Assembly (NCBI GenBank): GCA_963742535.1 | Contig: CAVUMC010000002.1 | Span: 1,683,146-1,747,145 of the forward strand | DNA: 64,000 nt | Reading direction: 5' to 3' | From: an uncultured Solirubrobacterales bacterium | Lineage (GTDB): Bacteria > Actinomycetota > Thermoleophilia > Solirubrobacterales > 70-9 | Part shown: positions 4,938 through 64,000 of the stretch, piece after piece | How positions within the stretch are numbered: position 1 is the first letter of the stretch | Layout: each line of letters opens with the position of its first letter | Notes under the pieces: generated by a model | Told to the model about the DNA's origin: nothing | The model's database searches: none | Seen by the model: only the letters and a program-made list of their open reading frames with translations | Program-made: the position numbers and the translations under genes

Positions 4938-4953
4938 CCGGGACTCGCCGCTC

Positions 4954-15482: not shown

Positions 15483-17383
<1,901 letters not shown>

Positions 17384-35810: not shown

Positions 35811-35886
35811 GGCGGGGATTCTTCCACTCGGTCCACCGCGCCACCGATCCGCTCCGTGTGTTCCATAATCAGACCCGATGCGCCCT

Positions 35887-35959: not shown

Positions 35960-36062
35960 TTGACAAAGGCTTTGACGAAATCGGCGCCGGGTCGAACTTA
36001 ACATCGATTCGTGACACGGTTGTTGTTATCTTGGACGTAGGGAAAACTGGAGGGGGAGGTTT

Positions 36063-48183: not shown

Positions 48184-48238
48184 GATAATGCCTCTCAGGC
48201 GCTAGTCTGCCCGTCCGGCCCACAACGCCGGACCTTCC

Positions 48239-48312
48239 GGGGGCGTAGCTCAGCTGGTTAGAGCGCTGGCCTGTCACGCCAGAGGTCGCGGGTTCGAGTC
48301 CCGTCGCTCCCG
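48239..48312 (+). tRNA. tRNA-Asp (anticodon GTC)
   Basis: The manual cloverleaf has acceptor GGGGGCG/CGCTCCC (one G-T pair), D arm GCTC-AGCTGGTTA-GAGC, anticodon arm CTGGC-CTGTCAC-GCCAG and T arm GCGGG-TTCGAGT-CCCGT, with discriminator G. Confidence 0.93.
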
Positions 48313-48360
48313 TCTTCGTCGATCCGCAAGGGCTCATTTGCCGCTATACCTGTTAGCCGG

Positions 48361-49245: not shown

Positions 49246-49284
49246 TCGCGAGTGGGGTGTCGAAAGGGCGAGAGCCCGCTTTTG

Positions 49285-49890: not shown

Positions 49891-49919
49891 CGGGCGCTCC
49901 CAAGACTTGCTTAGTCGGC

Positions 49920-51209
49920 GTGGGTTATCAAGTGCGGATGGGATCCCAGAGACGACACTTGATTTGCCTTGCCGTTGTGACCTGCCTGACCGGGGCTCTT
50001 CTTGCTTCCGCGACTGATGTCAGCGCTGAGCGGGGGGGCAGGCTGGTGCGGGTCAAGGCGCAGATCGGGTCCGAAGAGCGAGCCGTCGCCTACGGCCGTT
50101 CGCGGATGTTGCTGATTCCGCGCGAAGGGCCTGGGATCACCCGAATCAATTTGAACGGGTCAGTTGATCGGTCTTTCGGGGAGGGAGGTACGGCGTCGAT
50201 TGCAAGTGAAGACGCCGTGGTCGCGCCTGACGGCAAGATCCTCGTCGCCACCACCAGCTGTCCGCGCTGCGGAGTTGGGAAGAAAAGCGAGGCGCGGGTC
50301 ACGCGGCTGCTCGCCAACGGGAAGCGCGATCCCTCATTCGGTGTCGCGGGCAGCGTCGACGTCCCCTTTGGTCGGCGCTACGACTATGGACAGGCGGTGG
50401 CGCTGGCGGCAAACGGAGACATCTTGCTCGGCGGCATCCGGGTGAACTACGAGGTGGACCGGGGAGAAAGCAGTTTCACCCTCGCGGTTGCGCGCCTGCG
50501 GCCGGACGGCTCGCTCGACCGCTCGTTCGGCCGAGGCGGCGTGAGCATTCTTCAGGGGGGCGCCGAAATCGGGGTCCTCGACATCGCTCCGACTCCCTCG
50601 GGCGGCGTTGTGATCGAGGGAGGCAACGAAATCGAAACCTTCCTCTGGAAGCTGCGCCGCGACGGCCTGACCGATCGCAGCTTTGGCAAGTCTGGGGTGG
50701 TCGACCCCCGGGCCGGACGCAAGGTCAACGGCGTGCTTGAAGAACTTTCCTACGTTCCCGGCATCGTCGTCTTGCCGAGTGGCAGGCTGCTTTTGGGCGC
50801 GACCGGCTTTCTTTACAAGGGCCGCGGAGGACGATTCCGGGTGGCCGCGACTCGGCTGCGCCGCGACGGCCGACCGGATAGCTCCTACGGTGACCACGGC
50901 TTGGCAGTGGTCACCAAGGGTCCCCGCTGGACCACTGCGAATGGGCTGACGCTGCTCCCCGGCGGCGTCCTCGCCGTCGCCGCCACGTTCCAGAGCGTCA
51001 AGGAATGGAGCGACTTCGGCGTGATCGCCTTCGGCCCCGACGGTCACCCCGAGCGCCGTTTCGGAGCGGGCGGCCGCTGCCGTGCAGGGCTCGGCAAAGG
51101 GAGATACGAAGCCCTTGCTGTCACGGATATCGGCGGCCGTGCGGCAGTCATCGGCGACGGCGGTGCCGAATCGCGGTTGCTCAGTTGCTGGAGGCGGCGC
51201 CGGAGCTAA
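49920..51209 (+). CDS. secreted delta-60-repeat (beta-propeller-like) protein
   Basis: Signal peptide, then at least six repeats about 55-60 aa apart of the form (D/N)G..D.SFG..G (for example DGSLDRSFGRGGV, DGLTDRSFGKSGV, DGRPDSSYGDHGL, DGHPERRFGAGGR). Confidence 0.7.
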   Translation: MGYQVRMGSQRRHLICLAVVTCLTGALLASATDVSAERGGRLVRVKAQIGSEERAVAYGRSRMLLIPREGPGITRINLNGSVDRSFGEGGTASIASEDAVVAPDGKILVATTSCPRCGVGKKSEARVTRLLANGKRDPSFGVAGSVDVPFGRRYDYGQAVALAANGDILLGGIRVNYEVDRGESSFTLAVARLRPDGSLDRSFGRGGVSILQGGAEIGVLDIAPTPSGGVVIEGGNEIETFLWKLRRDGLTDRSFGKSGVVDPRAGRKVNGVLEELSYVPGIVVLPSGRLLLGATGFLYKGRGGRFRVAATRLRRDGRPDSSYGDHGLAVVTKGPRWTTANGLTLLPGGVLAVAATFQSVKEWSDFGVIAFGPDGHPERRFGAGGRCRAGLGKGRYEALAVTDIGGRAAVIGDGGAESRLLSCWRRRRS

Positions 51210-51239
51210 CCCGCGGCGAGACTGCCCGCATCGTGTGAC

Positions 51240-51812
51240 TCAGGTCCGCAGGCCATCGAGGGCGACGCCGAGGATGCGGTCGATTTGGTCGGGGTCGGCG
51301 GTGCGGATGCCGGCGATCCCACTGACCATCTTGGTCACGTCGGCGATGTCGGCATCGGGGCGGACGACGCCGGCTTCTTGGGCTCGCTTGAGGAGGGGCT
51401 CGCCGGCGGCGAAGATGGCGCCTCCGCAGGCAGTGAAGACCTTGGCATCGCGGTCGATGTAGGCGAGCAAGTCCTCGGCCAGGGCGCGCTTGGTGGCGGC
51501 GAAGCCGACGAACTCGTGCAGCCAGCCGCTCAGCGCCTCCCACGGGGGCTGGTCGAGGTAGTCCTCGGCGGCGCGGCAGATGCCTTCGACTCCCTCCAGG
51601 TAGACGGCTTCAAGCAAGTCCTGGCGGGTGGGGAAGTGGCGGTAGAGCGTGCCGATGCCGACGTCGGCGCGGCGCGCCACGTCCTCGAGGGTGGCTGAGG
51701 TGCCCTCCTCGGCGAACGCCTCGCGGGCAGCCTTGACCAACTTGTCGTAATTGCGTCGCGCGTCGGCCCGCTTCGGCCGGGGCGCAAGGGTTGTGACGTC
51801 GGATGCGCTCAT
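51240..51812 (-). CDS. TetR-family transcriptional regulator
   Basis: HTH TLEDVARRADVGIGTLYRHFPTRQDL. Divergent from the MFS gene. Confidence 0.9.
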   Translation of the reverse strand: MSASDVTTLAPRPKRADARRNYDKLVKAAREAFAEEGTSATLEDVARRADVGIGTLYRHFPTRQDLLEAVYLEGVEGICRAAEDYLDQPPWEALSGWLHEFVGFAATKRALAEDLLAYIDRDAKVFTACGGAIFAAGEPLLKRAQEAGVVRPDADIADVTKMVSGIAGIRTADPDQIDRILGVALDGLRT

Positions 51813-51840
51813 GGCTCTTCCTAAATTTCACACATTCGGG

Positions 51841-51918
51841 TTGACAAAACGGAGGCACCCTCCGTATAGTGCTCAAACGAAGCGGAGGCACTCTCCGAAT
51901 TACCCGGAGGCAGCCTCC
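51841..51918 (+). promoter_or_regulatory. MFS-gene promoter with three palindromic TetR-type operator candidates
   Basis: TTGACA (51841-46), N18, TATAGT (51865-70). The operators are ACGGAGG-CAC-CCTCCGT (51849-65, between -35 and -10), CGGAGG-CAC-TCTCCG (51883-97) and CGGAGG-CAG-CCTCC (51905-18). Confidence 0.65.
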
Positions 51919-51958
51919 ATTTTATCACCGCTCCTCCCAGCCCGAAAGGGGTCAATCG

Positions 51959-53359
51959 ATGACGCCCAAGCGCGCCGCCAATTTTGTTCTCGGAATCATC
52001 CTCGCCACCTACCTGATGATCATCCTCGACGTCTCCGTGGTGATCACCGCCCTACCCAACGTTCGCGCAGACCTCGGTTTCTCCGACGCGGCGCTTTCCT
52101 GGGTCCAGAACGCTTACGCGCTCACCTTCGGCGGGCTGCTCCTGCTCGGCGCCCGCGCCGGCGATCTGCTCGGCCGCCGCCGGGTCTTCGTCGCCGGCAT
52201 CGCCCTCTTCACCGCCGCCTCGATGCTCGGCGGGCTCGCCCAGTCACCGACCTGGCTGCTCGGCGCCCGCGCGCTGCAGGGAGTCGGCGCCGCGATCGCG
52301 GCGCCCTCCACTCTCGCTCTACTCACCGTCAGCTTTCCGGAGGGTCGCGAGCGCACCCGTGCCGTCGCCTATTACAGCGCCGTCGCTGGTGCCGGTGGCA
52401 GCGTCGGCCTCGTCCTCGGCGGCATGCTGACGACCTGGGCCTCGTGGCGCTGGGGCCTCTTCATCAACGTTCCGATCGGCCTGGCGCTGATCTGGCTGGC
52501 ACCTCGCCACCTGCCGGAGACCGAGCCTCAGGAGGGCCGCTTCGACTTCGCCGGTGCCGCCACCTCGACTCTAGGTATGACCGCGCTTGTCTTCGGCCTC
52601 GTCCGTGCCGCCGATGTCAGCTGGGGCGACCCGCTGGCGCTTGTCTCCTTCGTCGCAGCCGCGGTACTGCTCTCCCTATTCGTCGCCAACGAGCGGCATG
52701 CCGAGCATCCGATCACCCCGTTGCACCTCTTCTCCAGCCGCATCCGTTCTGGCGCCTACGGTGCCCGCATGCTGGCGGTGGGGGCAATGTTCGGCATGTT
52801 CTTCTTCCTCACCCAGTTCATGCAGGGCGCCGAGGGCTACAGCGCGCTCACCGCGGGCCTCGCCTTCCTACCGATGACGCTCTCGCTGTTCGCGACGGTG
52901 CAGGCGATCCCCCGGATCTCCTCTGAGATCGGTGATTCGCGCCTCTTGGCCGGCGGGCTGCTGCTGGCACTGATCGGCATGACCTGGCTCAGCCGGATCT
53001 CGGTCGGCGCCGACTACTTCACCCAGATGGCGCTGCCGATGGTGCTGCTTGGGATCGGCATGGGCGCGGTCTTCACACCGTTGACCACGGCCGGGATCTC
53101 GGGCGTCGCCGACGAGGACGCCGGCGCCGCCTCCGGCCTGGTCAACACCGCCCACCAGCTCGGCGGGACGCTGGGGATCGGGATCCTGATCTCCGTCTTC
53201 ACTGCGGCCGGCAACGGCGGAGTGAGCCAGCTGGCCGAAGGCGTGCCCGCGGCACTGACCGCCTCGGCGGTGCTGATCGCCCTGGCGCTGGTCGTGGTGG
53301 TGACGGTGATGCGGCCGCAGGAGGAGCCGGCCGTGGCGCTTCAGTCGCGCGGCGCGTAG
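51959..53359 (+). CDS. MFS transporter, DHA2 (EmrB/QacA, 14-TMS) type
   Basis: Start at Met 51959. About 14 hydrophobic segments, with motifs LGRRRVF and the PNV..DLGF region typical of drug:H+ antiporters. Confidence 0.88.
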   Translation: MTPKRAANFVLGIILATYLMIILDVSVVITALPNVRADLGFSDAALSWVQNAYALTFGGLLLLGARAGDLLGRRRVFVAGIALFTAASMLGGLAQSPTWLLGARALQGVGAAIAAPSTLALLTVSFPEGRERTRAVAYYSAVAGAGGSVGLVLGGMLTTWASWRWGLFINVPIGLALIWLAPRHLPETEPQEGRFDFAGAATSTLGMTALVFGLVRAADVSWGDPLALVSFVAAAVLLSLFVANERHAEHPITPLHLFSSRIRSGAYGARMLAVGAMFGMFFFLTQFMQGAEGYSALTAGLAFLPMTLSLFATVQAIPRISSEIGDSRLLAGGLLLALIGMTWLSRISVGADYFTQMALPMVLLGIGMGAVFTPLTTAGISGVADEDAGAASGLVNTAHQLGGTLGIGILISVFTAAGNGGVSQLAEGVPAALTASAVLIALALVVVVTVMRPQEEPAVALQSRGA

Positions 53360-53718
53360 CGGTTGTGGAGCATCAGGGTGTTGCCGTCGGGGTCGTTGAA
53401 GATCGCCATGTGACAGACGCCGCTGTCGATCGTGTCGGCGAGGAAGGAGACGCCCTTGGCCTCGAGCTCGCCGCGGGTGGCTTCGACGTCCTCGACGTGG
53501 AAGGCGGTGGGATGGGTGTTGGGCTCGAACTCGCGGCCGATGGCGGCGGCGTCGACCACCTGCAGGGTGAGGTTGCCGGTCTCGAACTCGCCGCCGGGGA
53601 TTTTGCCGTAGTCGGCTGAGTGCTCCAGGCCGAGGGTCTGGCCGTAGAACTCGACGGCGGCGGGATAGTCAGTGACGAGGACGGTGGCGAAGTCGACGCC
53701 GGTGATGGCGATGCTCAT
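53341..53718 (-). CDS. VOC/glyoxalase-family protein
   Basis: 125 aa with paired beta-alpha-beta-beta-beta modules, FHVEDVEATRGEL.AKGV and MAIFNDPDGN. Confidence 0.75.
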   Translation of the reverse strand: MSIAITGVDFATVLVTDYPAAVEFYGQTLGLEHSADYGKIPGGEFETGNLTLQVVDAAAIGREFEPNTHPTAFHVEDVEATRGELEAKGVSFLADTIDSGVCHMAIFNDPDGNTLMLHNRYAPRD

Positions 53719-53792
53719 GCTCTCCTCCTGGCTTGATCGCGGGCTGTGCTTGGGAGCCTAGTGGGCTCCCCCGGAGAAGACGGCAGCTCCGG

Positions 53793-54728
53793 CTAGGCGC
53801 GATAGCCGGGGAAGAAGCCGTTTGCGTCCTTGCCCGCGGTGAGGCTTCGGTAAGTGGCGGAATCGCAGACCAGCTCCGAGGTGTGCAGGGCCTGCTCGGT
53901 ATTGGCGAATCCCCGCTTAAAGGCTTCCAGCCGATCGCCTTTGGACTTCCCCCCACCAAGGTTCAGAGGCAGGTCCGTGCTTCTGCTGATCTTGATCAAC
54001 AGAGAGACGATGTTCTTCATTGGGGAGTCCTGCAGGTATGCGTCGGCTGTGCCACTCAGGTAGTAGTGGAGAAAGCCATCGCTGCGCACGACGACGGAGC
54101 CGGCGGCTATCGCTTCATTTGGTGCGTACGCAATCGCCAGCCAGGCGAGCGGCGATTTCAGGATGGTGTCGAAGTACCAAGGCTCGTAGCGATAGCGATC
54201 CTTGGCTTCGTTTCGGCGCATGGTCTCGAGATAGAGAGTGTGAAACGCCCCGCGCTGCCTTGGCGAGGATTCGGGGCCGTGAGCGATCTTGACCTTGTAT
54301 CCCCGTTCGGCATTGCGGCTGATCTGCCGCCGGTCCGAAGGCCGGAGCTTCAGTGGCTTCGAGAGGTCTGCGATCTGCACGGTGTTTCGCTCGGTGGTTC
54401 CGGTCAGAGGAGGAGGGCCCAGTGTGTGTCGAAGGAACGCGGTGACCAGGCCGGTCTCGCTGAAGTCGATCGCGGCGTGGTCAAAAGGTGGTCCCGAGCC
54501 CACGGTCGATCCGGGAAAGCCATAGGGGGATATGGCGTCTCGCTGGGGACCCTCGTCGATCGGGTTGACGATAATCGGAAACCACGCCTCCGCGACAGCC
54601 GATTCGAGGTGCAGCGTGTGGGTAACGCCCTCGGCGTCGTAGAAAGGGCGCGATCGAAAGAACTCGTCTGTTTCCGCTGCTCGTCCTGAGTCGTCGAGCA
54701 GCTGGGCCCTGCTTGGCTCACCCTTCAA
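53793..54728 (-). CDS. FemAB-like / GNAT (Acetyltransf_6-type) acyl- or aminoacyl-transferase
   Basis: LRPSDRRQISRNAERGYKV, F..LY.ETMRRN, YYLSGT and a C-terminal LGGG...L.AFKRGFA match the FemAB-like pattern as I recall it. Lower G+C than the backbone. Confidence 0.6.
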   Translation of the reverse strand: MKGEPSRAQLLDDSGRAAETDEFFRSRPFYDAEGVTHTLHLESAVAEAWFPIIVNPIDEGPQRDAISPYGFPGSTVGSGPPFDHAAIDFSETGLVTAFLRHTLGPPPLTGTTERNTVQIADLSKPLKLRPSDRRQISRNAERGYKVKIAHGPESSPRQRGAFHTLYLETMRRNEAKDRYRYEPWYFDTILKSPLAWLAIAYAPNEAIAAGSVVVRSDGFLHYYLSGTADAYLQDSPMKNIVSLLIKISRSTDLPLNLGGGKSKGDRLEAFKRGFANTEQALHTSELVCDSATYRSLTAGKDANGFFPGYRA

Positions 54729-54859
54729 GGGCGCTCCCGTCCAGGTAATCCCGCTCCCGTCATCCTCCCATCCTATGCAATACGGAAAACTAACTTCGAG
54801 TATTTATGATCAAGCATTTTCAACCGTAAAAAAGAGTTGCTTAGCGGCGTTAGAGTGCT

Positions 54860-56416
54860 GTGAAACCTCAAATGATGCGCTCGCCCAGTGCCCCCAGCCA
54901 CCCTCAAAGAGGGGGGATGAGAATGGACAGAGACGACGCCTCGTCGCGCTTTGCCATGCTCGAAGCGACGCTCTTGAGGAACAAGTCCGAGTCCGGCAGC
55001 TGGCCACATTGGCTGGACGTGGAGGATGCGTCGACGTCGCTGGTTGGAACCGCCCATGGCCTCGCGATGCTGCGGATGCGCGGCTATGAGTTTCACGAAC
55101 CGGACGTTCAAAAACCGCTGCTCTACTTGGCACGTCAAGTTCGGGTCCACACGAGGCGCGACCAGCGCGGAGAGTACTCCCGCTATCCGGCTTACGCGCT
55201 CTGGGGACTGATGAGATATCCCGGTGCCCTCGCTGAGAAAGAGATATTCGAGGGAGCTAAGTTCTCCGCCAACTGGCTGATCAGGAAAGCGCGCCCTTCG
55301 GGTGGGTGGTCGGTCAAGGGACATTCGGACGAGGAGCGCCTGCTCTCTCTGCCGGCGACGATGCCGGCGGTGCTCGGTCTGGATCGATTCGCGCCCTACG
55401 CCCGTGGCGACCTTGGGCGCAAGTGCATCCAGTGCTCACGCGACGCCCGCGCGGCGATCGCCGCCGCCGCTGTCGGAAGCGGCGAGTGGCGATTCTGGCG
55501 GCAGCTGCCGGGTGGGGAAGCCTGCCCTGGGGCGACCAGCCTTGCGGTCCTGACCTTGGCGGGAGGAACCAAGGAGGAGCGGGATCTCGCCGGGCTGGGA
55601 ATCAACTACCTTCTTGCGAACCCCGACGACTGGACTACGCAGGTCCATGACGATCAGCAGCTCAAGCAGCTGATCTGGCGCATCATGACCTTCAGCGTCG
55701 GGCTTCGTGCTGTGCTTCATCCATGCGCCCGTCAGAAGGTGAATGACGATGTTGTGCGTGCGGTCGTCGCGCACATGGACTCCCTTTGGTCAGAGGAGGG
55801 CGAGGGGTGGGCCTTCGTCCAGGGGGGCATCCCGACGACCACCGGAAGCTACGCTGTCGCCGCGGCGGTAAGGGCTCTCAAGAACGCCTCAGAGTTCGAC
55901 CCGTTTGCTCAGTACCTGGGGAAAAAACGCTTTCGGCCCACCGCTGCCAGGAAGGTCAAAGGGTCACGAAATGGTGGAATGGGAGCACAGAAGTCTCGCC
56001 GGATCGACGTATGGGAGGCAGAGCGGAAGATCACGATCAAGGTTGAGAATCCTCCCGGCCAGGAGTTCAGCGCAAAATGGGACGCTCGTGCAAAGTCACA
56101 ATGGGCGACCCTCATGGCCCTGCTCAAACGCCAGGTGCACGCGCAGGAAGTTCGGCGCCAGAAGGCCGCAAAAGAGAATGACAGACAAAGTGACGCCACA
56201 CTTTCGGTGGCCGCGCTGATGGAGTATTCCCAGGGAAAGGCCGCCAACGCAAAGTCGGTTGAAAGAACGATCAAACGCATAAACGCAAAGGTGGCAGAGA
56301 CTGCCTGGGAAGCCAAACTTCACTTCCAGTACCTGATCGAGCCGATGGCGGTGGGTGACTCAGAGGTCGACATGGAGTATGGAATGGAAGAGACCGAGGT
56401 CGTGTTTCACTCTTAG
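54860..56416 (+). CDS. prenyltransferase/squalene-cyclase-like alpha/alpha-toroid repeat protein with uncharacterised basic C-terminal domain
   Basis: Four GxW-type repeat cores (SGSWPHW, PSGGWSV, SGEWRFW, GEGWAFV) are each followed by a small-residue helix (TAHGLAMLRM, PAVLGLDR, TSLAVLTLAG, SYAVAAAVRAL). The C-terminal roughly 180 aa are Lys/Arg/Glu-rich with no motif I recognise. The likely real start is ATG 54917 or 54923, just after GAGGGGGG. Confidence 0.6.
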   Translation: MKPQMMRSPSAPSHPQRGGMRMDRDDASSRFAMLEATLLRNKSESGSWPHWLDVEDASTSLVGTAHGLAMLRMRGYEFHEPDVQKPLLYLARQVRVHTRRDQRGEYSRYPAYALWGLMRYPGALAEKEIFEGAKFSANWLIRKARPSGGWSVKGHSDEERLLSLPATMPAVLGLDRFAPYARGDLGRKCIQCSRDARAAIAAAAVGSGEWRFWRQLPGGEACPGATSLAVLTLAGGTKEERDLAGLGINYLLANPDDWTTQVHDDQQLKQLIWRIMTFSVGLRAVLHPCARQKVNDDVVRAVVAHMDSLWSEEGEGWAFVQGGIPTTTGSYAVAAAVRALKNASEFDPFAQYLGKKRFRPTAARKVKGSRNGGMGAQKSRRIDVWEAERKITIKVENPPGQEFSAKWDARAKSQWATLMALLKRQVHAQEVRRQKAAKENDRQSDATLSVAALMEYSQGKAANAKSVERTIKRINAKVAETAWEAKLHFQYLIEPMAVGDSEVDMEYGMEETEVVFHS

Positions 56417-56436
56417 CGCATCTCTGGTCGGCCCAC

Positions 56437-56527
56437 GGGACAGATCCTCCATCCATTTCGGGACAGGTGAAGGGTTGCGGTGGGACAGTTGATGCCGCGC
56501 GCGGACAGGTGAGAAAAAGACAGGTGA
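56437..56527 (+). repeat. array of five direct repeats, consensus GGGACAG(G)TGA
   Basis: The copies are GGGACAGATCC (56437), GGGACAGGTGA (56460), GGGACAGTTGA (56482), CGGACAGGTGA (56502) and AAGACAGGTGA (56517), at spacings of 23, 22, 20 and 15 nt. They lie in the non-coding spacer after the toroid-protein gene. Confidence 0.8.
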
Positions 56528-56588
56528 CCACCAGTGACGGCTTGCTGCCTGTGGTACTGATTGCCTATCGCCTGAAAAGTTGAATACA

Positions 56589-56617
56589 CGCCGGCCGTCG
56601 TGAGGCGACGACCGGCG
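56589..56617 (+). other. GC-rich stem-loop flanked by GTTGAAT direct repeats
   Basis: CGCCGGCCGTCG-TGAGG-CGACGACCGGCG is a 12-bp stem with one mismatch. GTTGAAT occurs at 56579-85 and 56620-26. No U-tract follows. Confidence 0.5.
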
Positions 56618-56654
56618 CCGTTGAATCCAAGAAGCTCTCTGAAGGGAGGCTCCC

Positions 56655-56834
56655 GTGAACGGATCCAACCGGCCAAAAGCCTACGCGATGCGGTGGAAGG
56701 TCACCCATGGCATCGCCGTCGGCATGGCCGCTGAGCAGTCGAAGAAAGCGCCCGTGCGCCACGAGGCGGAGCGCGATATAGCCGCGCAGCACAACAAGTC
56801 CTGCTTGCGCTCCCTGGGTGGAGGTGGTCGCTGA
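56655..56834 (+). CDS. candidate 59-aa leader ORF of the downstream operon
   Basis: GTG at 56655 is preceded by GAAGGGAGG. The frame opens only at 56643. Third codon positions are mostly G/C, as in real genes here. The TGA shares its final A with the ATG of the next gene (TGATG). It is below the ORF-track length cut-off. Confidence 0.45.
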   Translation: MNGSNRPKAYAMRWKVTHGIAVGMAAEQSKKAPVRHEAERDIAAQHNKSCLRSLGGGGR

Positions 56835-57997
56835 TGCGTCGCGTCTTCGACTGGATCCGCGATGCATTCGGCGGGGCGCGGCTGACCCGACCCCCGATCC
56901 CTGGCCCCAATGACCTTCACAGCTACATGCACAAGCTGTCGGCTGTTGCGAGCGGGGCGGGGGAAAAGCTGGTCAAGCTGCAGCTCGCGACAGGCGCACA
57001 GCAGGTTGCCGAGGGGACCTTCGATGCGCGCTCGCAGAGGCGCACGCGCTCCCCGCGCAAGCGCCTGGCGCGACTCGCCAAGCGAATCGCGCCCTATGGA
57101 CCGGGACTGTCGGTCCCCGACGGATTCACCGTGTTCGACCCGCTTGTCTCGCGGGTGTTGTTCTATCTGTTGACCTTCGGCCTCGCCGTAGGAATCCTGG
57201 AGACGGTCGGAACCTACTCGAGCCTCGTTGTCTTCGACGGGACGCTTGGACAGTTTCGAATCCTCCTCTCGGTCGCCTCAGGGGTGATCCTGGCTCTCTG
57301 CGGTCATGCCTGCGGTCACAGCTTCTTCACCGCGGTCAAGGCCGAAGGGCTGGTCAAGCGGCTGCTCTTTGGGCTCGCCTCGGCCTTGGTCGCCGTCGCG
57401 ATCATCGCTGTCTCGTGGACGGGGCTGGATCGCTCCGCCAATGAGGAATCGCGGGCCCTGGGCAAGCAGGCGGCCGTCCTGATCGCCGAAGGCGGTCGCC
57501 TCGAAAGCGTGGCAAAGGGGCTCGAAGGGCCGCAGCTCCAATTCGACAAGGCGGAAAAACCGACGAAAGCGAGTCTCAAGCGAGCCGCGCAGCTGCGCCG
57601 AGACGCGGCCCAGCTGCGCGGTAAGGCGGCACGCGCGGAAGCCAAGAGCGGCTCGGTTCGCTCGCTGAATTTCCTGGCGGGCATTCAGTGCCTGGGACTT
57701 GCAGTGGGCATCGTCGGTGGCTGGCTCTTCGCTGAGGCAGCGCCTCTGCGGGAGGGACGGCTTCGCGGGCGGGCCGCGGCCCTACGGGCGCGAATCGAAT
57801 CGATCGTGCTCGACGAGCGTGGCGCCGCCGGAGAGGCATACGGGCATTGGCTGGCGATGATGGCTACCGAGGGTGTTGATCTCGTCGAGTACGGCTTGCC
57901 GAAATTCGACGTGGCCCGCCACATCGTGCCTGAGCTTCAGTTGACCGTCAGCAATGGCGACGGGCACACCGTCGTCACTTCGGGAGGTGGACAATGA
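56834..57997 (+). CDS. membrane protein with central coiled coil, unknown function
   Basis: 387 aa. The layout is a soluble N-terminus of about 95 aa, three TM segments, a charged Ala/Arg/Lys helix of about 90 aa, a fourth TM segment and a C-terminal domain of about 100 aa. Confidence 0.65.
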   Translation: MRRVFDWIRDAFGGARLTRPPIPGPNDLHSYMHKLSAVASGAGEKLVKLQLATGAQQVAEGTFDARSQRRTRSPRKRLARLAKRIAPYGPGLSVPDGFTVFDPLVSRVLFYLLTFGLAVGILETVGTYSSLVVFDGTLGQFRILLSVASGVILALCGHACGHSFFTAVKAEGLVKRLLFGLASALVAVAIIAVSWTGLDRSANEESRALGKQAAVLIAEGGRLESVAKGLEGPQLQFDKAEKPTKASLKRAAQLRRDAAQLRGKAARAEAKSGSVRSLNFLAGIQCLGLAVGIVGGWLFAEAAPLREGRLRGRAAALRARIESIVLDERGAAGEAYGHWLAMMATEGVDLVEYGLPKFDVARHIVPELQLTVSNGDGHTVVTSGGGQ

Positions 57998-58710
57998 ATC
58001 GGAAAAACACTGTTCGCATACTCGCCATTGTCTTGCTCGTCGTGACCCTGGGCGCGGTCGTTATCGGGTGCGCTGGAATGAGCACTGACCACACAGTTGC
58101 GTGTGAGGTGGTCGACAGCTCGAAGTCGACCCGTTACGTGCAACCACACTATGAGGAAATACTCGAAGGGGATGCCGGGGAAGTCGCGGATGAGGGCGGT
58201 CTCCTGGTCGCGCTCGTGATCACCGGCGACCCGCGGGTGGAGTCGATCCCGGAGGAAGCCGATTTCGCCGATCTCACCGGTGTTGAAAAGGAAGGCCAGC
58301 GGAGCTCCGCGATTCGCCTGTTGCTTGACGAAGTCGATTCGGAGATGCGCGCATCTGCCCTGGGTGGGGAGAACCCAAGCTCAGGCTCGGGGATCATCGG
58401 GGGGATTGACCTGCTCGGGGACCGCGGCGATTGCGATTCGATCACTGCGCTTTCGGACGGCCTTGAGACGGCCGCGTTTCACGCCGGCAACGAAGGAGTC
58501 GTCTCCGTTGGGGGAAGAGAGCGAATCGTGCAGCGGCTGCAGGCGAATGGGCTAGTGCCGGACCTGAATGGGATCGACCTTGCCTTTCCTCTCGGTGGGG
58601 TGTTGCCCCAGGGCACGGATATGTCCCCAGCAAACCTCGTCGGGGTGAGGGAATTCTGGTCCCTGTATGCCGAAACCGCAGGTACGACGCTCATCTGGCG
58701 AGTCGAATGA
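57994..58710 (+). CDS. lipoprotein with vWA-like (MIDAS DxSxS) domain
   Basis: Lipobox VVIGC after a hydrophobic signal. VACEVVDSSKS fits DxSxS after a beta-strand; later GSGIIGGIDLLG and ITALSDGLET resemble vWA blocks. ATGA overlap with the upstream gene, and a GGGAGGTGG RBS. Confidence 0.55.
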   Translation: MNRKNTVRILAIVLLVVTLGAVVIGCAGMSTDHTVACEVVDSSKSTRYVQPHYEEILEGDAGEVADEGGLLVALVITGDPRVESIPEEADFADLTGVEKEGQRSSAIRLLLDEVDSEMRASALGGENPSSGSGIIGGIDLLGDRGDCDSITALSDGLETAAFHAGNEGVVSVGGRERIVQRLQANGLVPDLNGIDLAFPLGGVLPQGTDMSPANLVGVREFWSLYAETAGTTLIWRVE

Positions 58711-59489
58711 AGCCGCGGGCTTGGGGCACCTCTGTAGCAGTGGCGAGAACTCTGCGGGGCTTTCGTATCTGGGACCCCACTTCACTGCGTCGCGCGTCGC
58801 TACGCCTGCTCGCCCTGGCGCTGTTGGTCGCTCCGATCGCAATGCTTTTGACCACGCTGCCGGGGCCCTCGACACCCCCGGTGGACCCGCCGTCTGCAGG
58901 CCTGGCGGGTCCAGGCCCGGCTCATTTGAATCTTCATCGCCCGACGTTTCCCAACGGCTCGCTGGGCGTCCCCGGGATTCCCAAGCCAAGCATCGACATC
59001 GGCACCCAAAGCTCAGGCCAAGCTCGCCCTGGGGGCGAAGAGCCCTCAGAGCCCACAGACGATGGGCCAAGCCCTCCTCAGGTCGTGCCCGAACGTCTTC
59101 ACGAGCACGTCTATGACTTCGATGTTCGCACCAGCGTGCCTTGGCTGCTGCTCGTGCTTGCCGCGCTCGCGGTTTTCTACTGGCGAATGTCGATGACCCG
59201 CCTGCGAGCCCTTCTCGCGGCCTTTGGCTCGACGGTCGCGCTCTGGCTCGGGATCGACGTCGTCTATGCCGGCCAATTCCCAGAGGTGTTTCACTCTCGC
59301 GAATCGTTCTTCGACGATGGCGTCAGGCACATAGTCACGCAGTTCGATCACCGCCATCCGGTCATCGTCCATACACCGCTCGTCGTTCTCGGCCTCGGCT
59401 TGTTCGGCTGGTCTCTGCTCACTCTCTGGCGCCTGCGTCGTGTCAGCCGAGAGAGCCGGGCCGCGCATGCTCTTGCAACTCGAATATGA
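58707..59489 (+). CDS. membrane protein with Pro-rich extracytoplasmic segment, unknown function
   Basis: ATGA overlap with the upstream gene. One TM segment, a Pro/Gly-rich stretch of about 90 aa, then three TM segments. Confidence 0.55.
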   Translation: MKPRAWGTSVAVARTLRGFRIWDPTSLRRASLRLLALALLVAPIAMLLTTLPGPSTPPVDPPSAGLAGPGPAHLNLHRPTFPNGSLGVPGIPKPSIDIGTQSSGQARPGGEEPSEPTDDGPSPPQVVPERLHEHVYDFDVRTSVPWLLLVLAALAVFYWRMSMTRLRALLAAFGSTVALWLGIDVVYAGQFPEVFHSRESFFDDGVRHIVTQFDHRHPVIVHTPLVVLGLGLFGWSLLTLWRLRRVSRESRAAHALATRI

Positions 59490-59495
59490 GAGGAG

Positions 59496-59681
59496 GTGAG
59501 AAATTTGTCTGGCAGATCTCGAGAAAAGTCGCGCGCCGGCCATCAAGCCCGTGACGACATGTTTGGCCCGAAGATCGGCGGAAAGCGCCCTCAGGCAAAG
59601 CGCAGTCCCTTCAGCAACGAGGACCGGCAGCGCGGGGCGGCATTGACCAAGAAGGTGTTGAAGAGAGTAAAGAAGAACTAG
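59496..59681 (+). CDS. 61-aa highly basic small protein
   Basis: GTG start preceded by GAGAGGAGG, 6 nt after the upstream stop. About 35 % Arg+Lys and no hydrophobic segment. Confidence 0.45.
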   Translation: MRNLSGRSREKSRAGHQARDDMFGPKIGGKRPQAKRSPFSNEDRQRGAALTKKVLKRVKKN

Positions 59682-59738
59682 CCGGACCCTCCATCCGCGG
59701 GCTCGTTTGCTTGTCGGGTGACGGCAGGGCTGTAGGGC

Positions 59739-60668
59739 GTGCCAGCGAATGGGAATGAGTTGAAAGAGCACCTCCTCAATGACGGCGACCGCGCTGCGCT
59801 TCAGGCGCTTGTTCCACTCGCCGGCGCGCTCGGCGTCGGCACGACCTTTGCCCTCTTCTTCGGTGGCCCGCGCAAGTCGGGGACGGCGGTCTTCGAACTG
59901 TTCGCGATCGTCGCGGTGCTGACGGCCGCCGGGACAACGGCGTTCTTCGCGATCTCGCTGCTGCACCAAAACGAAGCGATCACGAGCCACGACCTGACCC
60001 AGACGGCAACCCCGCTTGTGGTCGCCGCGTTCCTGCTGGTCTTCGTCAGCGTGTTCGCCAGGTTGCCCGGATCGGGCCTGAGGCTCTTCGCGTTGGTGCC
60101 GCTGGCGCTTTCCGGTGTCGCGATCGCAGCCTTACTCGCCAGCTCCAGCTGGTCGGCGGAACCCGAAAATGCCAGCCTCGCGGCCCTGATCATTCTCGGC
60201 GTGGGGGCTGTGCTCTGGGCGTTGACCTGGGCATTCGAACGCCTCGACATCGGCTGGGATCGCCGCTGGGAACACAAACGGCTGACTCGCCTCTATGCAG
60301 CCGGCTACCTCCCCGATGAGAAGGACTTGGAGGTTGCCCTGCCGCGACGAGATGAGGACGGGAGCGATTCGGCGGTCGCCTGCTGGGCCCGCAAGGGAAG
60401 GTCCTACATGGACATCTCAAGTTTTCTGCACCTGCGGCGCCAGGCGACCGCGCGGTGGCGCGCATTCGCGACCGGAGAGGCGCAACCACCGGTCGGTTCG
60501 ACGATTCTCGTTCACGTCAAGGTCGGCTATCGGATCCCAATGGGTCGCGACCACGCCGTCGTCCGTGTCTCGGTCCTCGAGCCCGCCGCCGGCGGGGAGG
60601 CCCGCGAGCACGAAGTGCGCTCGAACGACGACGGCCTCTTCGACGTCACCGAGCTCGGCGTAGTCTGA
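59739..60668 (+). CDS. polytopic membrane protein with roughly 140-aa cytoplasmic C-terminal domain, unknown function
   Basis: GTG start, five hydrophobic segments, then a soluble WDRRWEHKRL... domain. Confidence 0.55.
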   Translation: MPANGNELKEHLLNDGDRAALQALVPLAGALGVGTTFALFFGGPRKSGTAVFELFAIVAVLTAAGTTAFFAISLLHQNEAITSHDLTQTATPLVVAAFLLVFVSVFARLPGSGLRLFALVPLALSGVAIAALLASSSWSAEPENASLAALIILGVGAVLWALTWAFERLDIGWDRRWEHKRLTRLYAAGYLPDEKDLEVALPRRDEDGSDSAVACWARKGRSYMDISSFLHLRRQATARWRAFATGEAQPPVGSTILVHVKVGYRIPMGRDHAVVRVSVLEPAAGGEAREHEVRSNDDGLFDVTELGVV

Positions 60669-60672
60669 GCGG

Positions 60673-61098
60673 GTGGTTCTGGGAACCGACACCAAGGTCG
60701 TACTGCTGCTGTCAGCGCTGATGTTCCTCTGGGCGCTGCTGCTGGGGGTGATGAAGTTCCGACAGATGGATGCCTCCGAGGAGGGGCTGGCCCATCCGTA
60801 CACCGACATCGCCCACCGAGCCGCTCTGCTCTACAGCTTTGCCCTGCTCCTGGTGGCAACCTTCGTCGAGCTGAGCGGTTGGGGCGTGGCGGTCAACCTG
60901 ATCGCCGCGGGCGCGCTGGCCTTCTACTTCTACGCCGCGGTGCTCGGCTACATGGTGCACGGCTGGAAGCGGGACACCGACAACCAGTTCCGGCGCCCCG
61001 GGCGCGGGCTCGAGGCCTTCATGGCCACCCTGATCGTCGCCGAGATCGGCGGTTGGCTGGTCCTGATCGCCGGCTTCCTCGACGCGCAGATCTTCTAG
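60673..61098 (+). CDS. four-TM small membrane protein, unknown function
   Basis: 141 aa. The GTG lies 4 nt after the upstream stop, and the gene ends in a 4-nt convergent overlap with the acyltransferase gene. Confidence 0.55.
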   Translation: MVLGTDTKVVLLLSALMFLWALLLGVMKFRQMDASEEGLAHPYTDIAHRAALLYSFALLLVATFVELSGWGVAVNLIAAGALAFYFYAAVLGYMVHGWKRDTDNQFRRPGRGLEAFMATLIVAEIGGWLVLIAGFLDAQIF

Positions 61099-63050
61099 CT
61101 CGGCGGCGGTGGGTCGCCGGAGACGACGCAGTCCTTGGCGTCGGTCATCTTCGTCGTCGGTTCGGTGTTGGGGAAAGCTTCCAGCAGCGCGTCGGCGATC
61201 AGGCGGCCGCGGGCGGCGTAGCCTTCGGAGGTGAAGTGGATCCCGTCGGGGATGTACCACTGGTCTTTGACGTCTGCCGCCCAGTTGTAGATGCGCATGC
61301 TGGGATAGCGGTCGCAGGCGGCGAGCAGCGCTTCGTTCCAGCTCTTCATGTTGGCCTCGGCGTAGGGGCCGTTCGGCACCAGCGATTTGACGTTGACCCA
61401 CATCACCGGTTCATCGCCGATCGTCGACATCATGCTGTCGATCCGGTCGTCGTAGGTGAACTTCGAGCCGACGGCGACGTCGGCCGCCTCGTTGGTTCCC
61501 ATTGCGATCACCCAGCAGCCTTTGAAGCCTTCGTTCTTCCACGCTTCCGCCACTTCCTGGGCATTTGGTTCGCCTTCGAAGTTCTCGTAGATGGAGCGCG
61601 CTCCCGCCACCTCGAGGTGCGCGGTGGTGGCGCCGACCCGGGCGTACTGGGCGGCGATCAGCTCATCGCGCGGCAAATATTCTTCGGAGACGAGGCCCTC
61701 GGAGGTCGAGTCGCCGATGTGGACGACCGCTTCGCAGGAGGTCGCCAGCGGCTTGCGCTTCGCGTTCTTCACCGTGACCGTCTTCGCCACCTGTTCGGAG
61801 CCGATCGCCGGCGTGCTGGAGACACCAACGCCGGCCAGTCCCGCGATCGCGGCGATGACGACGATCGCCGCCGCCGCGATCCCGATCCAACCCTCGCGCG
61901 GCACCTGCTCGCGGCGCCAGCGCCCCGCTTTCCACCGCGCCCAGAGCCGGCCGAGGGCGCCATGGCGGATCGGGTTCTCGACGTAGCGCCAGGAGAGCTC
62001 GGCCACCGCCATGATCGCCGCCACCTGCAGGATCGCCCGCAGCAGGTTGGGCCCGTGCACGCGCTGCGGTGAGGTGAGCACGATGATCGGCAGCGTCCAG
62101 AGGTAGATCCCGTAAGAGCGTTCGCCGATCCACTGCATCGGCTTGCAGCCGACGATCGGCCCCAGGCGCGAGGCAGGGTGAGCGAAAGACGCGACCGCGA
62201 GCGCTGTTCCCAGCGCCAGCACGGCGAAGCCGCCGCGGTAGATGAAGGGCGAGAACTCGTTCGAGCGCCAGAACATCAGGCCGATCACGATCAGGCCGAG
62301 CAGCCCGGCAGCGTCGATCACCCGCCGTGCCTGCGGCGTCACCCCGCCGCTGAGGTTGCGGCTGGGCCAGACCATCGCCAGCGCCGCGCCGACCAGCAGC
62401 TCGAGCGCTCGCGTGTCGGTGCCGTAGTAGACGCGTGAGGGATCGAGCGAGGGGTGGTAGAGGATCGCCATCAGGATCCCTGAGCAGAGCGCCGCGACGA
62501 GGGCGACGGCGGCGAGGCGCGGGCGCGGCCCTGACTTGCGCCGCGCTTCCGGCACGAAGTGCAGCGCCGCCATCAGCAGGAAGGGCCAGACGATGTAGAA
62601 CTGCTCCTCCACCGAGAGCGACCAGAGGTGGTTGAGCGGCGAGGGCGGCGCGAAGCGGGCGAAGTAGGAGACGTCGTGGAGGATCAGCCACCAGTTGTTG
62701 AAGTAGCCGACGGCGCTGAGCTCGGCCATGCGGAAGTCACTTGGCTGGTGCGGGCCGATCACGGTCACCCAGGCCATCACCACGATCAGCATCAGGAAGA
62801 GGGCGGGCAGCAGGCGCCGGGCCCGGGCCAGCCAGAAGGACTTCAGCTTGATCCCGCCGCGGTTGACCTGGTTGAGCAGGATGTCGGTGATCAGGTAGCC
62901 GCTGAGCGTGAAGAAGACGCCGACGCCGAGCAGGCCCCCTTCGGCCCAGCCGAATTTGAGGTGGTAGACGACGACGCCGAGCACCGCGATCGCGCGCAGG
63001 CCGTCGAGGCCCGGCATGTAGCGCTGGCCGCGCCCTACTGGTTCAGGCAT
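61095..63050 (-). CDS. OafA-type membrane O-acyltransferase (acyltransferase_3) fused to SGNH domain
   Basis: The N-terminus GLDGLRAIAVLGVVVYH plus about 10 TM segments is typical of acyltransferase family 3. The C-terminal SGNH domain has VVHIGDSTSEG, GTNE and DGIHF. Confidence 0.88.
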   Translation of the reverse strand: MPEPVGRGQRYMPGLDGLRAIAVLGVVVYHLKFGWAEGGLLGVGVFFTLSGYLITDILLNQVNRGGIKLKSFWLARARRLLPALFLMLIVVMAWVTVIGPHQPSDFRMAELSAVGYFNNWWLILHDVSYFARFAPPSPLNHLWSLSVEEQFYIVWPFLLMAALHFVPEARRKSGPRPRLAAVALVAALCSGILMAILYHPSLDPSRVYYGTDTRALELLVGAALAMVWPSRNLSGGVTPQARRVIDAAGLLGLIVIGLMFWRSNEFSPFIYRGGFAVLALGTALAVASFAHPASRLGPIVGCKPMQWIGERSYGIYLWTLPIIVLTSPQRVHGPNLLRAILQVAAIMAVAELSWRYVENPIRHGALGRLWARWKAGRWRREQVPREGWIGIAAAAIVVIAAIAGLAGVGVSSTPAIGSEQVAKTVTVKNAKRKPLATSCEAVVHIGDSTSEGLVSEEYLPRDELIAAQYARVGATTAHLEVAGARSIYENFEGEPNAQEVAEAWKNEGFKGCWVIAMGTNEAADVAVGSKFTYDDRIDSMMSTIGDEPVMWVNVKSLVPNGPYAEANMKSWNEALLAACDRYPSMRIYNWAADVKDQWYIPDGIHFTSEGYAARGRLIADALLEAFPNTEPTTKMTDAKDCVVSGDPPPPS

Positions 63051-63774
63051 CGCCGGCCAGGGAGAGCGGGAAGAGCGACATCGCCGCGCCCAGCAGCGAG
63101 TCGAGGATCTGGGCCTCGCGGCGCGCCAGCTTGTGCGCCGGCGGCAGTTCAGGGCCGGATTCGAGCGCCGGTCCCCGCTGCGCCGCGGCGGCGATGCCCA
63201 GGCAGCGCTTGATGCCCTGGGCGATCAACCGCGCCCGCAGGTCGGCGCCGGCGGGAATCGGGTGCAGGTCGTCGGACTGCATCAGCTCTGGGTGCGTTTC
63301 CTCTGCCCTGGCCCAGTCGGGCACCTGGGTCCCGGGCCGGGAGGCGGCGAAAGCCCTCACCACCCTGTTCTTGCCGGTGTTGTCGATTCCGTTGACGGTA
63401 AAGCCGTGGATGGTCGGCACCACCATGCAGCGGTCGCCGACCGTAGCCGCGACCTTTTCCAGGTTTTCGGCGAGGATCGCTGGATAGGCGGGGTTGTCGT
63501 TGGTGCCGGCGTCGAAGACGATCACCGATTGCGAGGGGTCGTAGCTTTCCTCGAAGAGGTCGTAGACCTGGAAGCTGTTGGAGCCGCCCACCGCGTTGAC
63601 GGTCAGCGGCACACCCGGCAGATACTTCTTCAGGTAGGGCGAGGTCAGTTCCTCGAGGCTGTCGCCGACGACGAGAACGCCGCCACTGCCTGAGCTCGCA
63701 CTCGCGGACGAAGCGGGGAGGGCGAGGGCAACAAGCATCGCCACCAGAACCGCGAGCTTGCGCGCACTCGGCAT
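63043..63774 (-). CDS. secreted SGNH/GDSL hydrolase
   Basis: Start at Met 63774 with the signal peptide ..ALALPASSASA. Block I VVGDSL, block III DAGTND and block V DDLHP. Confidence 0.8.
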   Translation of the reverse strand: MPSARKLAVLVAMLVALALPASSASASSGSGGVLVVGDSLEELTSPYLKKYLPGVPLTVNAVGGSNSFQVYDLFEESYDPSQSVIVFDAGTNDNPAYPAILAENLEKVAATVGDRCMVVPTIHGFTVNGIDNTGKNRVVRAFAASRPGTQVPDWARAEETHPELMQSDDLHPIPAGADLRARLIAQGIKRCLGIAAAAQRGPALESGPELPPAHKLARREAQILDSLLGAAMSLFPLSLAGDA

Positions 63775-63798
63775 CTGGCGAATTTCTACACTACGCAG

Positions 63799-64000
63799 AT
63801 GCGGCTCAGGGCGGTGGCGACAATCGGCATCGTGCTGGGCCTGGGCCTGCTTCTTGGCTCCTGTGGAGGCGATGACAGTACGGCCGCGGGCGGCTCGGCG
63901 AGCAACGGCTCGACGGCGAGTGCTCCCGTCACAACGAAAAGCGCCGGGGCGATCGCCAGGTCCCGTCGCTCCTGTCGTCACGAGCTCGCCCCCTTCGTCG
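63799..64000 (+). CDS. lipoprotein, 5' fragment (runs off the window)
   Basis: ATG at 63799 gives MRLRAVATIGIVLGLGLLLGSCGG, a signal peptide with a lipobox, followed by a Ser/Gly/Ala linker. It is not in the ORF track because no stop is reached. Confidence 0.5.
   Translation, partial: MRLRAVATIGIVLGLGLLLGSCGGDDSTAAGGSASNGSTASAPVTTKSAGAIARSRRSCRHELAPFV

Follow-up and report, generated by a model that had tools for sequence, protein, structure and literature searches.

A 6-kb island in an uncultured Solirubrobacterales genome carries one copy of a rare, mobile six-gene cassette for cell-envelope proteins

We analysed a 64,000-bp stretch of DNA (hereafter the window) from an uncultured Solirubrobacterales bacterium (GenBank assembly GCA_963742535.1, contig CAVUMC010000002.1, positions 1,683,146 to 1,747,145), following up an earlier note, made by a model from the sequence alone, which had singled out a lower-GC block near the right end of the window. 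Positions 53,750-59,725 (5,976 bp, ~5.98 kb) are a horizontally acquired island in the genome of this soil actinobacterium. The island carries one copy of a rare, conserved and mobile six-gene cassette for cell-envelope proteins, in which a FemAB-like gene on the minus strand is followed by a gene for an alpha/alpha-toroid protein (toroid), a spacer, the membrane-protein genes cc, vwa and pro, and a small basic open reading frame (ORF). The 6-kb island is foreign, its cassette is conserved and is also found on an integrative element, and four of its proteins could be assigned to a fold or family.

Extent and foreign origin of the island

The GC content of the segment is 62.4%, as compared with 67.4% in the rest of the window (~67% overall), which makes it the lowest 6-kb stretch, and its tetranucleotide deviation (z = 4.1) is the largest in the window. 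The GC content at third codon positions (GC3) of the six island genes lies between 0.70 and 0.77, below the values of all 34 clear backbone genes (0.79-0.94, minimum 0.787, mean 0.86; Mann-Whitney p = 2.6e-7). The compositional contrast described in the earlier note was thus borne out. Its two long, AT-rich spacers (54729-54916, 52.7% GC; 56417-56654, 60.1% GC) and its ORFs with junctions of -1, -4, -4, +6, +57 and +4 nucleotides were also found as it had given them.

Related loci were fetched with the adjacent gene for an OafA-type acyltransferase (61095-63050) as the probe, which yielded 80 loci with 10-kb flanks. The conserved genes of the window are 75-95% identical to their counterparts in metagenome-assembled genomes (MAGs) of uncultured Solirubrobacterales. 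By tblastn, no counterpart of the FemAB-like, toroid, cc, vwa, pro or small basic proteins was detected in any of the 80 loci. The insertion site is spanned by 28 of these loci, and the block is absent from all 28. In 26 of the spanning relatives the gap between the membrane-protein gene mem2 and the VOC gene is 44-133 bp; in the other two (L005 and L006) it is ~1 kb and holds a further membrane-protein gene, mem1. In the closest relative, L005 (DNA identity 88-93%), colinearity extends over positions 51,246-53,749 and 59,726-63,999 of the window (blastn), and 40 bp of L005 replace the 5,976 bp of the window. Because colinearity with L005 breaks at 53749/53750 and is back at 59725/59726, the limits of the island were placed at ~53,750 and ~59,725. 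With L005 and L006, respectively, blastn colinearity ends at 53749 and 53756 and restarts at 59726 and 59781. A 7,076-bp contig from a metagenome run reaches from within the VOC gene, where it ends, to the end of mem1, and is consistent with strain-level variability over exactly that stretch.

The comparison confirmed that the block is an indel, a check that the earlier note had proposed, and it refuted the alternative that the block is native. According to this alternative, which we consider extremely improbable, these would be lineage-specific core membrane genes, with a low GC content that follows from the composition of membrane proteins. Membrane proteins do bias codon positions 1 and 2, and cassette copies in other toroid-bearing hosts also lie 1-7 GC points under their flanks. 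The deficit is, however, one of third codon positions and is common to the genes of the soluble FemAB-like and toroid proteins too, and the block is missing from every spanning relative, including some in which the OafA protein is 90-95% and the flanking DNA 88-93% identical.

The earlier note had let the block run to 61,098 and had taken eight co-directional ORFs for what looks like one operon. The foreign part is ~1.4 kb shorter. The last two genes of the run, mem1 (59739-60668; GC3 0.81; present in ~10 relatives without the block) and mem2 (60673-61098; GC3 0.91; 84-94% identical in relatives), are backbone genes, because their GC3 is backbone-like and relatives without the block have both of them. 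The run of eight is a chimera of island and backbone genes rather than one native operon. After the insertion ~13 bp of the original mem1 upstream region were left (window 59682-59738), and therefore mem1-mem2 may need read-through from the island operon or a promoter at the right end of the island.

The mem1 gene is itself variable (63-81% identical) and stands on either side of VOC, depending on the relative: between mem2 and VOC in the window, L005 and L006, and beyond VOC in six others (the loci entered for mem1 are L005-L009, L060, L075 and L077). In several further relatives it is reduced to C-terminal fragments of 30-40 amino acids.

Contrary to the earlier note, which had seen no flanking direct repeat, an 8-bp repeat, GACGGCAG, flanks the insertion (Table 1), and a single GATCGGC is found at the matching position in the empty sites of L005 and L006. 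The repeat is not significant alone: we take it as suggestive, because a shared 8-mer arises in ~15% of shuffles. Apart from this repeat, searches for terminal inverted repeats and long direct repeats at the island ends returned chance-level matches, and there is no tRNA, integrase or transposase gene at the insertion site.

Table 1. Features of the island and its insertion site (positions in the window)
Feature	Position	Strand	Remarks
Acquired island	53750..59725		within the short spacer that separates the divergent genes VOC (start 53718) and mem1 (start 59739)
Direct repeat, left copy, GACGGCAG	53779..53786	+	possible target-site duplication or microhomology
FemAB-family / Acetyltransf_6 (double-GNAT) transferase gene	53793..54728	-	soluble, no transmembrane (TM) segment; divergent from toroid gene
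Divergent spacer FemAB-like/toroid	54729..54922		~52% GC; presumed bidirectional promoter region
toroid gene	54923..56416	+	cytoplasmic, 497 amino acids; (alpha/alpha)6 toroid ~1-330, C-terminal domain ~357-497
Array of four GGACAGNT boxes	56438..56525	+	candidate operator; directly after the toroid stop
Hairpin/palindrome	56588..56618	+	13-bp stem, CGCCGGCCGTCG-TGAGG-CGACGACCGGCG core; cc-operon leader; kept in the four-locus alignment
ORF of 59 amino acids	56655..56834	+	ends on the cc start codon; doubtful gene, possibly a non-conserved upstream ORF or leader
cc	56834..57997	+	4-TM coiled-coil protein; helical hairpin of ~80 amino acids between TM3 and TM4
vwa	57994..58710	+	vWA-like lipoprotein; lipobox Cys26, motif of the metal ion-dependent adhesion site (MIDAS) type
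pro	58707..59489	+	Pro-rich 4-TM protein; N-terminal anchor, linker of 83 amino acids with 23% Pro, C-terminal 3-TM domain
Small basic ORF	59505..59681	+	58 amino acids, 18 K+R; conserved Shine-Dalgarno sequence GAGAGGAGGTGAG upstream
Direct repeat, right copy, GACGGCAG	59720..59727	+	second 8-bp copy

Recurrence of the cassette

The full cassette, with 41-54% identity, recurs in three independent places represented by four contigs (L085, L086 and L087/L088). The FemAB-like gene, which the earlier note had treated as a mere bracket of the block, occupies the same position in all of them and is a conserved member of the cassette. The cc-vwa-pro core alone was found in L001, L002-4, L093 and L095, and across L086, L087/L088, L001, L002 and L093 the identity of the core is 30-57%. 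In two variant cassettes (L089 and L090) toroid is accompanied by a lipoprotein gene of the vwa family and by a gene for another coiled-coil membrane protein. In GC content, two of the three toroid-less cores exceed their own flanks.

Cassette genes are rare in the collections searched. Word-indexed searches returned three clusters for cc, four for vwa and 29 for toroid, and a metagenome scan with a narrower vwa alignment found three loci only. Scans of all block proteins against Pfam (at the curated cut-off), NCBIfam, PADLOC and PHROGs gave a weak Acetyltransf_6 match alone; curated libraries recognise none of the set, in line with the statement of the earlier note that no gene matched a characterised system. 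The toroid and vwa proteins were not found among the PLSDB plasmids (tblastn), scans for both among the IMG/VR viral contigs gave nothing, and no description of the cassette was found in the literature. The cassette matches no described system.

In L086 a pair of genes for 604-residue Glutaminase + cNMP-binding proteins (4717-6531 and 15419-17233) encloses the cassette along with genes for a GFO_IDH_MocA oxidoreductase and a Peptidase_S13 protein. This bracketing pair suggests duplication or recombination at the site.

The cassette as cargo of an integrative element

In L085 the cassette is located between two full tRNA-Val(TAC) genes, which are 13,962 bp apart and 87% identical. The DNA between them encodes a tyrosine integrase adjoining the second tRNA gene, an Xis-like protein, two XRE regulators, a Replic_Relax protein (E = 6e-27) and an 872-residue protein that has TM helices at its N terminus and Walker A/B motifs (P-loop NTPase; a sequence search of PDB with this protein gave no match). 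The cassette stands directly upstream of the genes for the NTPase, the Replic_Relax protein, the Xis-like protein and the integrase. This 14-kb tRNA-Val element is a small integrative element of the actinomycete type, with the cassette as its cargo. The tRNA-Val locus of the element and the tRNA-Val gene of the window at 35,886 are in synteny.

The island of the window has the cargo and no mobility genes: tblastn with the proteins of the L085 element detected cassette genes only, and no integrase, excisionase, or replication and transfer genes at 53.7-59.7 kb. The remark of the earlier note that mobility was not evident thus holds inside the window; it does not hold for the cassette, which in L085 is part of a tRNA-Val-bounded element with the mobility genes listed above. 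The L085 element resembles the actinomycete integrative and conjugative elements (AICEs) found at tRNA genes in its duplicated tRNA-Val, its tyrosine integrase, Xis-like and Replic_Relax proteins, its membrane P-loop NTPase and its size of 14 kb. In contrast, the window copy, without integrase, rep/tra genes or a tRNA at its end, is located in an intergenic spacer and is flanked by at most an 8-bp repeat. None of the AICE modules Spd, Pra, Kor and NUDIX was matched by the cassette.

The cc ortholog of L085 (8859-9865) is split over two reading frames, owing either to a frameshift or to faulty assembly of this long-read MAG.

FemAB-like and toroid proteins

The assignments that the earlier note had guessed for four of the larger proteins (FemAB-like, alpha/alpha toroid, vWA-like lipoprotein and Pro-rich membrane protein) held up. 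The FemAB-like protein of the window scored just under the Pfam cut-off (PF13480, 20.8 bits versus 22), and Acetyltransf_6 was matched by all four cassette orthologs (E up to 0.1; best E = 1.1e-8), one of which also matched FemAB weakly (E = 0.007). These orthologs, from L085-L088, are 43-48% identical to it. A sequence search of PDB with the FemAB-like profile found nothing. The lysostaphin immunity factor Lif/Epr is a FemABX-family transferase that serves as a mobile immunity factor. The likeness to such factors consists in a FemAB-family enzyme on mobile DNA with envelope-acting functions; unlike them, the window copy falls short of the family cut-off, and no lytic enzyme partner is encoded.

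An alignment of 29 homologs and an independent gene call indicate that the toroid gene most likely starts at 54923, not at 54860. The protein has no TM segment. AlphaFold2 (29 sequences) gave a model with a predicted local distance difference test score (pLDDT) of 88.8 and a predicted template-modelling score of 0.88, for which Foldseek returned (alpha/alpha)6 barrels: GH76 mannanases, squalene-hopene cyclase and drimenyl-PP synthase (E = 1e-4 to 1e-3, template-modelling score (target) 0.64; 9-21% identity), and further MstE and FTase beta. Weak PF13243 matches were obtained with several of the 29 homologs, and the toroid profile reached E ~0.02 only in PDB, with SQHop_cyclase_C proteins. Neither a DxDD motif nor a Cys/His Zn triad is present in the invariant or near-invariant columns of the 29-sequence alignment.

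The N-terminal part of the protein therefore has the same overall fold as class II terpene cyclases, prenyltransferase-like proteins and GH76 barrels, but it has no conserved catalytic motif, and an additional C-terminal domain sets it apart from barrels of the terpene-cyclase type. Judged by these features, the toroid looks more like a ligand-binding module than an enzyme. The last 140 residues of the model are arranged as beta3-alpha-beta-alpha-alpha-beta3, a winged-helix-like topology; an OmpR-type assignment of this tail was tried and not confirmed (see below). The upstream neighbour of the toroid gene is the FemAB-like gene in the four full-cassette loci, a PlsC-type acyltransferase gene in L091 and GT4 glycosyltransferase genes in L089.

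Proteins of the membrane operon

The TM segments of cc are located at residues ~104-126, 138-161, 177-195 and 278-305, and conserved residues within the membrane are E123, G-H158-x-x-G-H162 and Q285. Orthologs are present in L001, L002, L085-L088, L093 and L095. The AlphaFold2 model, built from three sequences, is all-helical and unreliable (pLDDT 54.6).

The vwa protein has a hydrophobic segment comprising residues 9-27 and the lipobox VIGC with an invariant Cys26. The motifs D41-x-S43-x-S45(-T46), G-S132-G and S154-D155-G are invariant in six orthologs, and Cys37 and Cys147 are conserved. An exhaustive HMMER search identified 152 representative clusters (50% identity) of 230-270-residue proteins. 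In this extended family ~60% of the members have a lipobox and ~60% have DxSxS. The window protein itself has no Pfam match; VWA_2 was matched below the cut-off by 11 of 130 family members (E down to 8.5e-5), and the family profile matched the BatA-type vWA structure 4jdu in PDB (E = 3e-4) with both motifs aligned.

In PDB the family profile came closest to the BatA/BatB-type vWA proteins of the Bacteroides aerotolerance operon (4jdu, 4rck), which share the aligned DxSxS and G(S/T)...(S/T)DG motifs and are likewise tethered to the membrane. The anchor is formed by TM helices there and by a lipobox here, and the similarity is marginal (E = 3e-4). Of the usual Bat partners looked for, no MoxR AAA+ ATPase, DUF58 or TPR protein is encoded in the cassette, and MoxR and DUF58 are absent from the window island and from L085-L088. 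An analogy can also be drawn to CglB of Myxococcus gliding motility (PMC9946355), an outer-membrane lipoprotein adhesin whose integrin-type vWA domain faces outward, binds ligands and is coupled to machinery in the membrane. CglB belongs to a diderm, whereas the host of the island is a monoderm-type actinobacterium, and Glt/Agl partners are not encoded here; homology is not claimed.

Domain fusions occur in the extended vwa family (P0103, P0131, P0145, P0159, P0181 and P0185). Four proteins have a C-terminal OmpA peptidoglycan-binding domain, and in P0103 (TIR_2, E = 1.7e-32) and P0131 a cytoplasmic TIR domain is followed by one TM helix and the vwa-like domain. The OmpA and TIR-TM fusions would place the vwa domain outside the membrane, near the wall. 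By their architecture they suggest that the domain acts as an outward-facing sensor, and the predicted TIR fusions show that it can be wired to an effector of the immune type.

A distant family member, P0065, is encoded in L097 (2449-8762) downstream of a radical-SAM-like gene, an AAA_5/AAA_2 ATPase gene and a gene for a 515-residue protein, a context unlike the cassette.

The pro protein is the Pro-rich membrane protein that had been predicted. Its conserved loops contain His and acidic residues (HEHxY, FPE, DGV-HIV and HxHP) and, because of the positive-inside rule, are expected to face outward.

The last ORF of the island is real, as the earlier note had it, but its start is probably at 59505, which gives 58 rather than 61 amino acids. 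The ORF and its Shine-Dalgarno sequence are kept in four loci. The small basic protein is 78% identical between the window and L086 (12265-12447), where the neighbouring genes are 41-54% identical, and it is least conserved in comparison with L085 and L088. On inspection of the alignment the differences between the window and L086 look mostly synonymous.

Candidate regulatory DNA

A scan for sigma-70 promoters found none, and terminator-like sites occurred at chance level. The GGACAGNT boxes start at 56438, 56461, 56483 and 56503, i.e. with spacings of 23, 22 and 20 nucleotides (~two helical turns), and a degenerate fifth box, AGACAGGT, is located at 56518-56525. Four of the eight GGACAGNT matches in the 64-kb window fall within 73 bp. 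GGACAG/CTGTCC boxes are also clustered in the toroid-to-cc spacers of L085, L086 and L087, and they are absent upstream of cc in the toroid-less L001 and L002.

The hairpin lies ~65 nucleotides beyond the box array. With a strict pattern it was found once per full-cassette locus and in none of the toroid-less or variant cassettes; a looser match lies inside the L086 toroid gene. In the alignment 94% of the cells are paired and two pairs have compensatory changes, modest support given the four sequences. Rfam had no match in 53.0-61.5 kb.

The 59-residue ORF listed in the earlier note is a doubtful gene and shows no conservation at the protein level. In five of the nine loci inspected (window, L001, L086, L087/L088 and L093) an ORF upstream of cc terminates at or beside the start codon of cc, but its sequence is not conserved. 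We also considered the 59-residue ORF as a conserved gene or as the precursor of a ribosomally synthesized and post-translationally modified peptide; these candidates were rejected on the lack of sequence conservation and of LanC-type Zn ligands in the toroid.

Possible function of the cassette

The best explanation that we can offer, and we offer it tentatively, is that the cassette is a mobile, toroid-regulated accessory module which remodels or monitors the cell surface. The toroid would be a ligand-sensing one-component regulator, whose barrel may bind a small envelope-derived ligand such as a glycan or a polyprenyl-type precursor. Its winged-helix-like tail would bind the phased GGACAG boxes downstream of its own gene and control the cc operon with its hairpin leader. 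The proteins cc, vwa and pro would form a membrane complex, to which cc may contribute a polar intramembrane track (E / H-x3-H / Q). The lipid-anchored, presumably extracytoplasmic vwa could grip, by its MIDAS metal site, an acidic residue of a partner loop, a wall component or a foreign surface, and pro would direct its stalk and His/acidic loops outward. The divergent FemAB-family enzyme may modify peptidoglycan or a lipid precursor. As a net effect, the carrier would probably be shielded from outside agents, for instance phage, lytic enzymes or incoming DNA. The idea of a regulator comes from the winged-helix-like topology of the toroid tail, the clustered, phased GGACAG boxes and the hairpin that occurs only where toroid and cc are adjacent. 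The envelope theme comes from the envelope-modifying enzymes encoded upstream of toroid and from the vwa relatives fused to OmpA or TIR.

Several observations weigh against this explanation. The toroid is also found without the membrane genes (L091 and L092) and its link to them is not obligatory, because cc-vwa-pro occurs without toroid (L001 and L002). The toroid tail gave scattered sub-threshold Pfam helix-turn-helix matches only (E of at least 0.005), no PDB match and no hhalign match to a Trans_reg_C protein. The 'channel/transducer' role of cc is drawn from its conserved residues only, because the AlphaFold2 model is unreliable. The vWA assignment of the lipoprotein is remote, with sub-cut-off Pfam matches and E = 3e-4 to PDB. 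The evidence on boxes and hairpin comes from only four independent loci. PADLOC had no match for the cassette proteins (E up to 0.1) or their unexplained neighbours, and the neighbourhood is not a recognised defence island: the other inserts of the hotspot are an ECF (extracytoplasmic function) sigma factor, an S24-like protein and SpoIID. These inserts ruled out a classical defence island, which we had also considered.

A dedicated anti-phage system acting by abortive infection is a less likely reading of the same genes. Here vwa would detect phage attachment or a breach of the envelope, cc would depolarise or permeabilise the membrane, and toroid and the FemAB-like enzyme would be accessory. 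The TIR - TM helix - vwa-like architecture of two extended family members speaks for it, all the more as the TIR domain of P0103 matches PADLOC TIR models of defence systems, and so do the rare, patchy distribution of the cassette, its occurrence as mobile-element cargo in variable sites and the conserved polar residues in the membrane part of cc. However, no cassette protein matches PADLOC or PHROGs, and TIR was found in only two of the best 150 vwa-family matches. The neighbourhoods inspected contain no adjacent genes of known defence function (outside the L085 element, at a distance of 4 kb, there is an MNT/HepT toxin-antitoxin pair), and the distant member in L097 has another context, its adjoining AAA ATPase matching PADLOC candidate models weakly and via the ATPase core only. 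A bolder version, to which we assign a similarly low chance, is that the cassette is an undescribed mobile 'outside-in' immunity or exclusion system of Actinomycetota, in which vwa would sense, cc would execute and the toroid-winged-helix protein would set expression, while elsewhere the sensor would be wired via one TM helix to TIR. Zorya ZorAB (PMC11890865) and Kiwa KwaAB offer a conceptual likeness, that is, an envelope-embedded complex with possible surface sensing on variable DNA. The cassette differs from them: it has no PADLOC match, lacks a MotAB-like stator and, in this copy, an OmpA domain, and contains no gene for a cytoplasmic nuclease or effector.

Two further readings appear quite unlikely. 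In the first, the cassette would serve the homeostasis of metals or ions or the resistance to them: a divalent metal would be captured by the MIDAS lipoprotein together with the His-rich outer loops, and the 4-TM H-x3-H/E protein would move or sense it. The MIDAS motif of vwa, the intramembrane G-H-x-x-G-H and E motifs of cc, HEH and HxHP in the outer loops of pro, and weak VIT1/DUF4337 matches of the L090 cc analogue would all fit, but there is no similarity to a known transporter or metal-resistance family, no ArsR-, MerR- or CsoR-type regulator is conserved in the cassette, and the FemAB-like and toroid genes are left unexplained. Alternatively, the cassette might belong to the machinery for transfer, mating or spread of an AICE-like element, analogous to Spd or entry exclusion, and the window copy would be a remnant stranded after the loss of int, rep and tra. 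The position of the L085 cassette directly upstream of the NTPase, Replic_Relax, Xis-like and integrase genes agrees with such a role, as does the fact that the L085 element encodes no other membrane proteins. On the other hand, every cassette ORF is intact in the window, the flanks read of L086, L087/L088, L001, L002 and L093 contain no transfer genes, the PLSDB plasmids yielded no homologs, and the sole copy inside an element, that of L085, is the one with the disrupted cc frame. Because intact cassettes persist without transfer genes and the cc frame is disrupted in the in-element copy, a transfer role is less likely, and the 30-57% identity of cc-vwa-pro across contexts points to selection that does not depend on transfer genes.

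Provided that it works as a unit, the cassette defines several protein families that lie outside the curated libraries, namely a MIDAS-motif lipoprotein with 152 clusters at 50% identity, a toroid-plus-winged-helix protein and two membrane-protein families, and links them to mobile DNA in Solirubrobacterales, a large uncultured soil order. Outward-facing sensing in bacterial conflict and envelope systems is a poorly understood class, and the TIR-TM-vwa and vwa-OmpA fusions provide a testable lead that the vwa domain may be a sensor of this kind. Should it turn out to be a plain accessory envelope operon, the region would still be a clean example of an island with cargo that is traceable to an integrative element in a related genome.

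Variable sites elsewhere in the window

A variable segment of ~2.9 kb (48238-51237) starts from the 3' end of the tRNA-Asp gene (48238-48314) and is absent or replaced in relatives. The segment contains a gene for a DUF5122 beta-propeller protein (49920-51209) and two ORFs without Pfam match, has a lowish GC3 and is probably another insertion at a tRNA gene. After the tRNA-Val(TAC) gene (35886-35960) comes the kilobase with the lowest GC content in the window (60.7%), which codes for two secreted-looking proteins in tandem (36063-36863 and 36878-37681); the two are paralogs with 56% identity and no Pfam match.

A second variable site is the slot between the OafA gene and mem2, where relatives have 0-4 kb of additional sequence (L077, 11936-15970; L013, L017, L034, L037 and L039). 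Its inserts include genes for an ECF sigma factor and an S24-like protein, as well as ORFs of no assigned function. In L043 and L035 the slot is occupied by a gene for a protein of 373-399 amino acids, which in L043 has a SpoIID domain.

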